Counted from the first letter of the stretch, positions 32,493 through 33,200 are shown. The stretch: DNA of 64,000 bases from Escherichia coli (GCF_003790525.1 NZ_CP033634.1); one strand, 5' to 3'. Notes: generated from the letters alone by a model not told the origin. Program-made: numbers and translations.

Positions 32493-32669
32493 TGCGGCAA
32501 CAATCACACGGATTTCCCGTGAACGGTCTGAATGAGCGGATTATTTTCAGGGAAAGTGAGTGTGGTCAGCGTGCAGGTATATGGGCTATGATGTGCCCGG
32601 CGCTTGAGGCTTTCTGCCTCATGACGTGAAGGTGGTTTGTTGCCGTGTTGTGTGGCAGAAAGAAGATAG

Positions 32670-32745
32670 CCCCGTAGTAAGTTAATTTTCATTAACCACC
32701 ACGAGGCATCCCTATGTCTAGTCCACATCAGGATAGCCTCTTACC
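32670..32745 (-). ncRNA. sok: Sok-like antisense RNA (approximate placement)
   Basis: Inferred from the known hok/mok/sok architecture (antisense to the mok initiation region); ends not determined. Confidence 0.35.
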
Positions 32746-32926
32746 GCGCTTTGCGCAAGGAGAAGAAGGCCATGAAACTACCACGAAGTTCCCTTGTCTG
32801 GTGTGTGTTGATCGTGTGTCTCACACTGTTGATATTCACTTATCTGACACGAAAATCGCTGTGCGAGATTCGTTACAGAGACGGACACAGGGAGGTGGCG
32901 GCTTTCATGGCTTACGAATCCGGTAA
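32714..32926 (+). CDS. mok: Mok, modulator-of-killing reading frame overlapping hok
   Basis: 70-aa ORF starting upstream of and overlapping hok in another frame. Confidence 0.65.
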
Positions 32927-32930
32927 GTAG
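32772..32930 (+). CDS. hok: Hok-family membrane toxin (52 aa), type I toxin-antitoxin
   Basis: [52 protein letters not shown]; below the ORF-track length cut-off. Confidence 0.9.
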
Positions 32931-32939
32931 CAACCTGGA

Positions 32940-32961
32940 GGCGGGCGCAGGCCCGCCTTTT
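32940..32961 (+). terminator. Rho-independent terminator after hok
   Basis: GGCGGGC GCAG GCCCGCC followed by TTTT. Confidence 0.65.
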
Positions 32962-33200
32962 CAGGACTGATGCTGGTCTGACTACTGAAGCGCCTTTATA
33001 AAGGGGCTGCTGGTTCGCCGGTAGCCCCTTTCTCCTTGCTGATGTTGTACGGGCATGAACAACCTGACTTCAGGAAGGTCGTTTCCCTTCAGGAACGGGG
33101 ATGAACGCGCGCCTGCGGCGCCCGTTCTTTTCCCCCGCCTTCTCTGGTTACGGCCTGTCAGAAATCACATCACCTTCCCTGTGATTATTCTCTTTTTCTT

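Follow-up and report, generated by a model that had tools for sequence, protein, structure and literature searches.

An intact R1-type hok/mok/sok module in the leading region of an IncF-like plasmid of Escherichia coli

Introduction

A short stretch of DNA downstream of psiA in an Escherichia coli sequence (NZ_CP033634.1, assembly GCF_003790525.1) raises the question of whether a locus that looks like a known killer system is still an intact module, to which of the described alleles it belongs, and what it might do for the plasmid that carries it. [quoted passage not shown] Its annotation is another matter: a 52-codon toxin gene and a 64-nt antisense RNA fall under the usual gene-calling thresholds. 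Furthermore, the chromosomal hok loci of E. coli K-12 are inactivated by insertion sequences, and a hok-like sequence may likewise be a relic. A first-pass annotation of the 64,000-nt stretch analyzed here (the window) had proposed a hok/mok/sok-type locus of R1/F architecture at 32640-32965. Here, we examine the coding frames, transcripts, antisense RNA and predicted folds of this locus against published work on R1, compare it with the flm locus of plasmid F and other alleles, and place it in its plasmid context.

Materials and Methods

The locus was compared with R1 at 33 published nucleotide positions, over 76 nt of primers and through the exact Hok sequence, and from these data we infer full base-for-base identity. 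The 33 nucleotides come from the mutagenesis study of Le Rhun et al., 2022 (PMC9841398), where they are given in hok-mRNA numbering, and include T-12, A-11, T-7, G4, C5, T6, G64, A70, G71, C72 and C74, and further G105, A106, T117, G118, G345 and C358. The four R1 primers, amounting to 76 nt in total, were taken from Faridani et al., 2006 (PMC1635323). Database annotation was checked in four RefSeq records, three of them with an R1-type hok and one with an F-type hok.

Results

The hok and mok coding frames

The hok toxin gene occupies 32772-32930 on the plus strand and comprises 52 codons from its ATG, followed by a TAG stop codon (32928-32930), exactly where the first-pass annotation had placed it. 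The first-pass annotation had noted that the gene falls under the ORF length cut-off; the ORF list contains it only as a 59-aa TTG-started version (32751-32930). Failure of the protein to align with the Hok family had been named as grounds for refuting the proposal; the product matched both the Pfam HOK_GEF family (PF01848; E-value 1.2e-21, 76.5 bits, cut-off 22) and the NCBIfam subfamily model NF007279, "type I toxin-antitoxin system Hok family toxin" (2.7e-37, 126.4 bits, cut-off 73), far above cut-off. It is a small (~50 aa) hydrophobic toxin with a Hok/Gef domain, and its exact 52-aa sequence bears the UniRef name "Protein Hok, RepID=HOK_ECOLX" and is found on at least 1,000 contigs in public collections. 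The chromosomal hokA-E loci and the plasmid loci srnB and pnd share the Hok/Gef toxin family and the type I organization with the locus in the window; against the NCBIfam HokA equivalog, the Hok of the window scores only 44.6 bits, with a cut-off of 89. A Shine-Dalgarno sequence for hok, GGAG, can be read on the plus strand at 32759-32762 (+161 to +164 of the mRNA), 9 nt 5' of the ATG.

The mok leader ORF, listed at 32714-32926 on the plus strand, consists of 70 codons that overlap hok in a different frame, with the same coordinates as had been reported before. Mok matches Pfam DUF5431 (2.6e-41) and the NCBIfam equivalog PRK13720, "modulator of post-segregation killing protein" (5.2e-45, 151.6 bits, cut-off 110), and its exact sequence is named "Protein FlmC homolog, FLMC2_ECOLX" in UniRef. 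Positions T117 and G118 of R1 fall in the mok start codon of the window, and the mok Shine-Dalgarno sequence, GAGG, lies at 32703-32706 on the plus strand (+105 to +108), where G105 and A106 of the motif defined in R1 map (PMC9841398). The locus hence has the overlapping upstream mok ORF of a hok/sok system, and translation of hok would be coupled to it by analogy with R1. A tblastn search of the window yielded no credible second Hok-family or Mok gene and no second copy of the locus, the best match outside it having an E-value of 0.087 for hok and 0.19 for mok.

Promoter, transcripts, and 3' end

A consensus scan places the promoter of the mok-hok transcript at 32563-32592 on the plus strand, with a -35 element TGGTCA (32563-32568), an 18-nt spacer and a -10 element TATGAT (32587-32592). 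Positions T-12, A-11 and T-7 of R1, which mutation has shown to be required there (PMC9841398), correspond to 32587, 32588 and 32592 within this TATGAT. The mRNA start was set at 32599 from the R1 hok forward primer, the body of which matches exactly at 32599-32617, and from the 33 published positions. In R1, hok transcripts of 441, 398 and 361 nt have been reported (PMC1635323). Mapped onto the window, the full-length, translationally inert mRNA of 398 nt corresponds to 32599-32996 on the plus strand, the end of the 441-nt isoform would fall at about 33039 (+441), and the processed, active mRNA of 361 nt ends at 32959 (+361), where the exact match of the R1 hok reverse primer (32946-32959) also ends.

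Downstream of hok, folding predicts a GC-rich stem-loop at 32941-32958 on the plus strand (GGCGGGC-GCAG-GCCCGCC) followed by UUUU (to 32961). The first-pass annotation had noted this hairpin and called it a terminator; the hairpin is real, but the label is imprecise: the primary transcripts of R1 (398 and 441 nt) extend past it. In R1, the stem-loop after hok is the road-block for 3' exonucleases that defines the processed mRNA (PMC1635323), and mutations at G345 and C358, which map to 32943 and 32956 in the stem, destabilize the shortened R1 hok mRNA (PMC9841398). A second, 14-bp hairpin is predicted at 33000-33031 on the plus strand (AAAGGGGCUGCUGG-UUCG-CCGGUAGCCCCUUU, then CUCCUU). Since it lies near +441 (33039), the longer R1 transcript length, this distal hairpin is the probable terminator of the 441-nt primary transcript. 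It is 95-98% conserved across alleles, and at one arm position (33023, A/G) all four alleles differ from the window with pairing kept, as either U-A or U-G.

Taken together, these elements extend the functional unit to approximately 32563-33039. The interval of 32640-32965 originally assigned to the locus runs from +42 to just after +361 and is therefore too narrow: the hok promoter, nucleotides 1-41 of the mRNA with the tac element, the fbi element and the distal hairpin all lie outside it.

The Sok antisense RNA

The two R1 Sok primers match the window exactly at 32660-32681 and 32703-32723. They bound a segment of 64 nt, the published length of Sok, and define a Sok antisense RNA on the minus strand that runs from 32723 to 32660 (5'-GACUAGACAUAGGGAUGCCUCGUGGUGGUUAAUGAAAAUUAACUUACUACGGGGCUAUCUUCUU-3'). 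For a 66-nt stretch that is two bases longer at the 5' end (32725 to 32660), the centroid structure consists of a single-stranded 5' tail and a long hairpin, and the minimum free energy (MFE) structure, at -26.5 kcal/mol (z = -5.8), contains in addition a weak helix of 3 bp within the tail; the exact 64-nt Sok yields the same MFE structure and energy. The 11-nt 5' tail, GACUAGACAUA, is perfectly complementary to positions +115 to +125 of the hok mRNA, which span the mok AUG. A cis-encoded antisense RNA over the mok initiation region, with the tail and hairpin expected of Sok, is hence present as sequence and as predicted structure, and its transcription is putative.

Inspection of the bases that precede the Sok 5' end suggests a putative Sok promoter on the minus strand (32730-32758), with a -35 element TTGCGC (32758 to 32753), a 17-nt spacer and a -10 element TATCCT (32735 to 32730) located 6 nt from the Sok start. 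It is weak by consensus, its -35 element having 3/6 matches, and the consensus promoter and terminator scan that found the hok promoter reported neither this promoter nor the two 3' hairpins, because its thresholds exclude them.

A match to RF01794, the "sok antitoxin (CssrC)" family of Rfam, covers 32598-32774 on the plus strand and scores 88.9 bits against a gathering score of 59; the family consensus stops at the hok AUG. Because of this strand and this end point, RF01794 corresponds to the sense leader of the hok mRNA and not to the antisense Sok. The match therefore supports the locus, but does not bear on the orientation of Sok, since what the family recognizes is the hok leader.

Predicted folding of the hok mRNA

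The translational activator element, tac (GGCGCUU), forms the 5' end of the mRNA at 32599-32605 on the plus strand, and mutation of its G4, C5 or U6 abolishes toxicity in R1 (PMC9841398). On the same strand, the predicted fold places ucb, the anti-SD box (AGCCCCG), at about 32668-32674 (+70 to +76), and the fold-back inhibitory element, fbi (AAGCGCC), lies at 32988-32994 (+390 to +396) and is also conserved in F and three further alleles. The 398-nt RNA is predicted to fold at -175.9 kcal/mol (z = -8.25), with 0/100 shuffled sequences folding equally well, and tac (1-7) pairs with fbi (390-396) in this RNA with an in silico probability of 0.98-1.0. In the same predicted full-length fold, the mok SD region (104-109) is held by positions 71-73 and 75-76: bases 105, 107 and 108 of the SD are paired to 75, 73 and 72, respectively, and A106 remains unpaired opposite C74. 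The same ucb/SD pairing, with A106 opposite C74, has been described for R1 (PMC9841398). [quoted passage not shown]

Forcing the open pairing, in which tac (4-6) pairs with ucb (72-70), carries a penalty of 12.2 kcal/mol in the 398-nt RNA; in the 361-nt RNA the penalty is only 0.2 kcal/mol (-147.2 vs. an MFE of -147.4 kcal/mol), and the forced fold also generates the published SD/dcb stem, in which 106-111 pair with 116-121. The unconstrained MFE structure of the 361-nt RNA retains the SD/anti-SD hairpin and a local 5' hairpin instead of the published open tac:ucb fold, and hence the prediction alone does not establish the switch. Refolding to the open form is consistent with, rather than demonstrated by, thermodynamic prediction. 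Sequence alignment is uninformative for or against these pairings, because tac, fbi and the 3' stem hardly vary among the five alleles.

Agreement with the R1 allele

With the hok mRNA start at 32599, the window carries the R1 base at all 33 numbered nucleotides, and registers displaced by 1-6 nt match at 5-11 of the 33. The four R1 primers are likewise all exact in the window (PMC1635323). Thirteen codon changes named for R1, nine in hok and four in mok, all fall on the expected residue type, among them K2E, C11R, V12G, L17P, M46I and Y48N in hok, and G16G, Q15R, E17E and E18E in mok. For 12 of the 13, the codon number is also that of PMC9841398; the exception is U326C, which falls in codon 51 of the window and in codon 52 of the paper, where the "G52G" label is probably a typo. 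Loss of the hok stop codon would result in a 17-aa extension in the window, in agreement with the same study.

The Hok protein is identical to that of R1 hok/sok (parB, GenBank X05813, Swiss-Prot HOK_ECOLX), and the -10 element, tac, ucb, mok SD, 3' stem-loop and fbi of R1 are all present in the window. The lengths of Sok (64 nt) and of the shortened mRNA (361 nt) are also equal in both. No difference from R1 was found across the 33 positions, the 76 nt of primer sequence and the Hok protein, and it is from the 33/33 positions and the four exact primers that the locus can be assigned to the R1-type allele.

Distribution and plasmid context

The window is an IncF-like conjugative plasmid with hok/sok in its leading region, and its gene order, psiB-psiA-hok/sok...traM-traJ, is the same as around F flm. 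Upstream, psiA (31773-32492) is a 239-codon uninterrupted ORF with a match to Pfam PsiA of 7.2e-39 over positions 3-236 of 237. Downstream, hok/sok is followed by a DUF932 gene, an SLT transglycosylase gene, traM, and then traJ/FinP at 36.7 kb. Several further Rfam families exceed their gathering scores in the window, all of them expected components of F-like plasmids: the traJ 5' UTR and the FinP antisense RNA at 36712-36821 (118 and 91 bits), AS-pc01 at 25222-25324 on the minus strand (86.7 bits), and AS-traG at 58739-58824 on the minus strand (65 bits).

Three direct repeat copies of ~520 bp, 93.6-98.5% identical, are found at 24575-25086, 27905-28427 and 33237-33761, each with an internal imperfect inverted repeat (e.g., 33447-33709, with ~68% self-complementarity). 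In position and structure they resemble Frpo1 and Frpo2, the single-strand promoter repeats of F, and AS-pc01 lies near the first copy. The hok/sok locus sits between the copies at 27905-28427 and 33237-33761, which are 98.5% identical over ~525 bp. In RefSeq, parts of the three copies are labeled "frameshifted single-stranded DNA-binding protein" or hypothetical pseudogenes.

All 25 listed top-ranked plasmid records match a 521-bp region containing the locus at 100% identity, and the best match reaches 99% identity or more in at least 1,462 records. Among complete E. coli genomes, the locus is present in 3,160 of 5,426, and 4,275 of its 4,324 places are on plasmids; the chromosomal places number 49. 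On the chromosome of E. coli strain 8600 (NZ_CM167998.1), a leading-region fragment at 2887-6316 lies next to IS1 and IS110 remnants and holds a psiA remnant, a flm-type hok/sok, a DUF932 gene and an SLT transglycosylase gene.

Discussion

The evidence presented here leaves us with little doubt that the locus is an intact type I toxin-antitoxin module, hok/mok/sok (parB) of the R1 type, which would act via post-segregational killing. It is an already known locus, of which identical copies exist on well over a thousand sequenced IncF plasmids. The hok/mok/sok architecture of R1/F type that had been proposed for it is present in all its parts, and can be narrowed down to the R1 allele, as distinct from F flm. 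At the sequence level, the prerequisites for function are in place: the ORFs and the regulatory elements are all intact, and the base is that of R1 at each position tested. The predicted folds are consistent with the closed and open states, and expression, processing, Sok action and killing in the present plasmid would be expected by analogy with the work on R1.

The mechanism elucidated in R1 (PMC9841398, PMC1635323) can be mapped onto the coordinates of the window. In this model, a weak promoter with its -10 element at 32587-32592 would produce a stable mok-hok mRNA from 32599. The full-length RNA, of 398 nt and also in a 441-nt form, would be closed by tac-fbi pairing and have its mok SD held by the ucb anti-SD, so that neither ribosomes nor Sok could bind it. 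Slow 3' exonucleolytic trimming would then shorten the RNA by 39 nt, as far as the road-block hairpin (new end at 32959), freeing tac to pair with ucb and allowing the 5' end to refold in a manner that exposes both the mok translation-initiation region and the Sok target. As long as the plasmid is present, the abundant but unstable 64-nt Sok, transcribed from a strong promoter inside mok, would use its 11-nt 5' tail to bind over the mok AUG, blocking the translation of mok and hence the coupled translation of hok, and RNase III would cut the duplex. In plasmid-free segregants, Sok would decay within ~30 s and the hok mRNA would last for ~30 min, as judged from the half-life of Sok and the persistence of hok mRNA in the R1 literature (PMC9841398, PMC1635323); Mok and Hok would then be translated, and the 52-aa membrane toxin would kill the cell.

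Two other readings of the locus would each undo part of this assignment. The locus could be the flmA/flmB/flmC allele of F rather than that of R1, which would preserve the mechanism under a different antisense specificity. The F locus (NC_002483, ~62.8-63.3 kb) does occupy the same genomic position, in the leading region downstream of psiA, between psiA and the oriT-traM side, and the alignment with F flm that had been put forward as a check gives 95% identity over the locus. The differences are concentrated, however, in the Sok-complementary segment (32660-32723), which is only 70% identical to F, with 19 of its 64 positions differing and 5 nt of indels among them, whereas its flanks are 92-100% identical; identity reaches 100% in the 5' leader (+1 to +61), 97% in the hok coding sequence and 100% in the 3' stem-loop. 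Relative to the window, F flm shows 3-nt and 2-nt indels in the Sok segment and a 2-nt indel before fbi. Furthermore, both R1 Sok primers are absent from F, and F matches 15 of the 33 R1-numbered positions vs. 33 of 33 in the window. F flm is therefore a different antisense/target allele, and the window, in which the F-type flmB (Sok) segment is missing, can be regarded as an F allele only with extreme improbability; this candidate was rejected on sequence grounds.

The other reading holds that the locus is a decayed or silenced relic, a hok-like sequence that no longer kills. RefSeq annotation by PGAP would seem to favor it, marking mok as an "incomplete" pseudogene and Hok as a protein of only 41 aa in identical loci. 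Yet both full-length frames are open and uninterrupted by any insertion, the wild-type base is present at each R1 position tested, including sites where single substitutions abolish toxicity, and the PGAP calls are start-site and overlap artifacts, the PGAP Hok starting at the GTG of codon 12 (32805). On the basis of its open frames and of the wild-type bases at all tested R1 positions, the relic interpretation was rejected, and we consider it very improbable.

Accepting an intact R1-type module, its main selected role could still be local, besides or instead of plasmid addiction, with hok/sok guarding the ssb-psiB-psiA segment against loss through recombination between the flanking repeats, acting at conjugative establishment, or both. 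The position of the locus between Frpo-like repeats of 98.5% identity points in this direction, as does work on F, where Frpo1 and Frpo2 flank flmAB and a guard role has been proposed for flmAB (PMC9849209), and the finding that leading regions are enriched in toxin-antitoxin genes (PMC11541004). Such a role would nonetheless change only the selective benefit of the module and leave its mechanism untouched, and the R1 papers present hok/sok as a plasmid stabilizer via post-segregational killing (PMC9841398, PMC1635323). A predominantly local role appears to us rather unlikely.

A further idea concerns the timing of expression at plasmid entry. [quoted passage not shown] Read-through from the Frpo-like single-strand promoter repeat at 27905-28427, upstream of ssb, could then yield hok-containing RNA before a Sok template exists; the inert full-length fold and its slow 3' processing would provide a safety delay during establishment, and the module would penalize recombinational losses between the 98.5%-identical repeats. 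The guard idea has already been published for F (PMC9849209), and the entry-timing idea is our own suggestion; we deem this scenario speculative and improbable.

Mosaic alleles were seen at 315-810 in NZ_CP024259.1 and at 315-810 in NZ_CP119001.1 (the F5505 plasmid and pCE0026f1, respectively). The F5505 plasmid carries a Sok segment of the F/flm type, with 72% identity to that of the window, together with a hok coding sequence of the R1 type (100%). The hok coding sequence of pCE0026f1 shares only 72% identity with the window, against 98% in the 5' leader and 100% in the 3' stem-loop. Among the compared alleles, conservation is higher at the RNA-regulatory ends than in the toxin gene, and the sequences suggest that the Sok/target segment is exchanged as a cassette.

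The practical value of this analysis lies in annotation, since its map of elements (promoters, tac, ucb, SD, Sok, road-block hairpin, fbi and distal terminator) can be transferred to records of this kind. In all four RefSeq records checked, PGAP gives Hok as an N-terminally truncated protein of 41 aa (32805-32930; WP_001372321.1, with WP_096937776.1 as the 41-aa Hok of the F-type record), mok as an "incomplete" pseudogene (32714-32863), and Sok is unannotated. Three of the four also carry an antisense "hypothetical protein" that is probably spurious; in the two records identical to the window, this is the 62-aa WP_001299721.1 (32504-32692, minus strand), which is antisense to the hok promoter and leader and overlaps Sok. 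In RefSeq records with an identical hok region, psiA is called a "frameshifted" pseudogene and made ~30 nt longer, a call that is probably an artifact of the annotation model.
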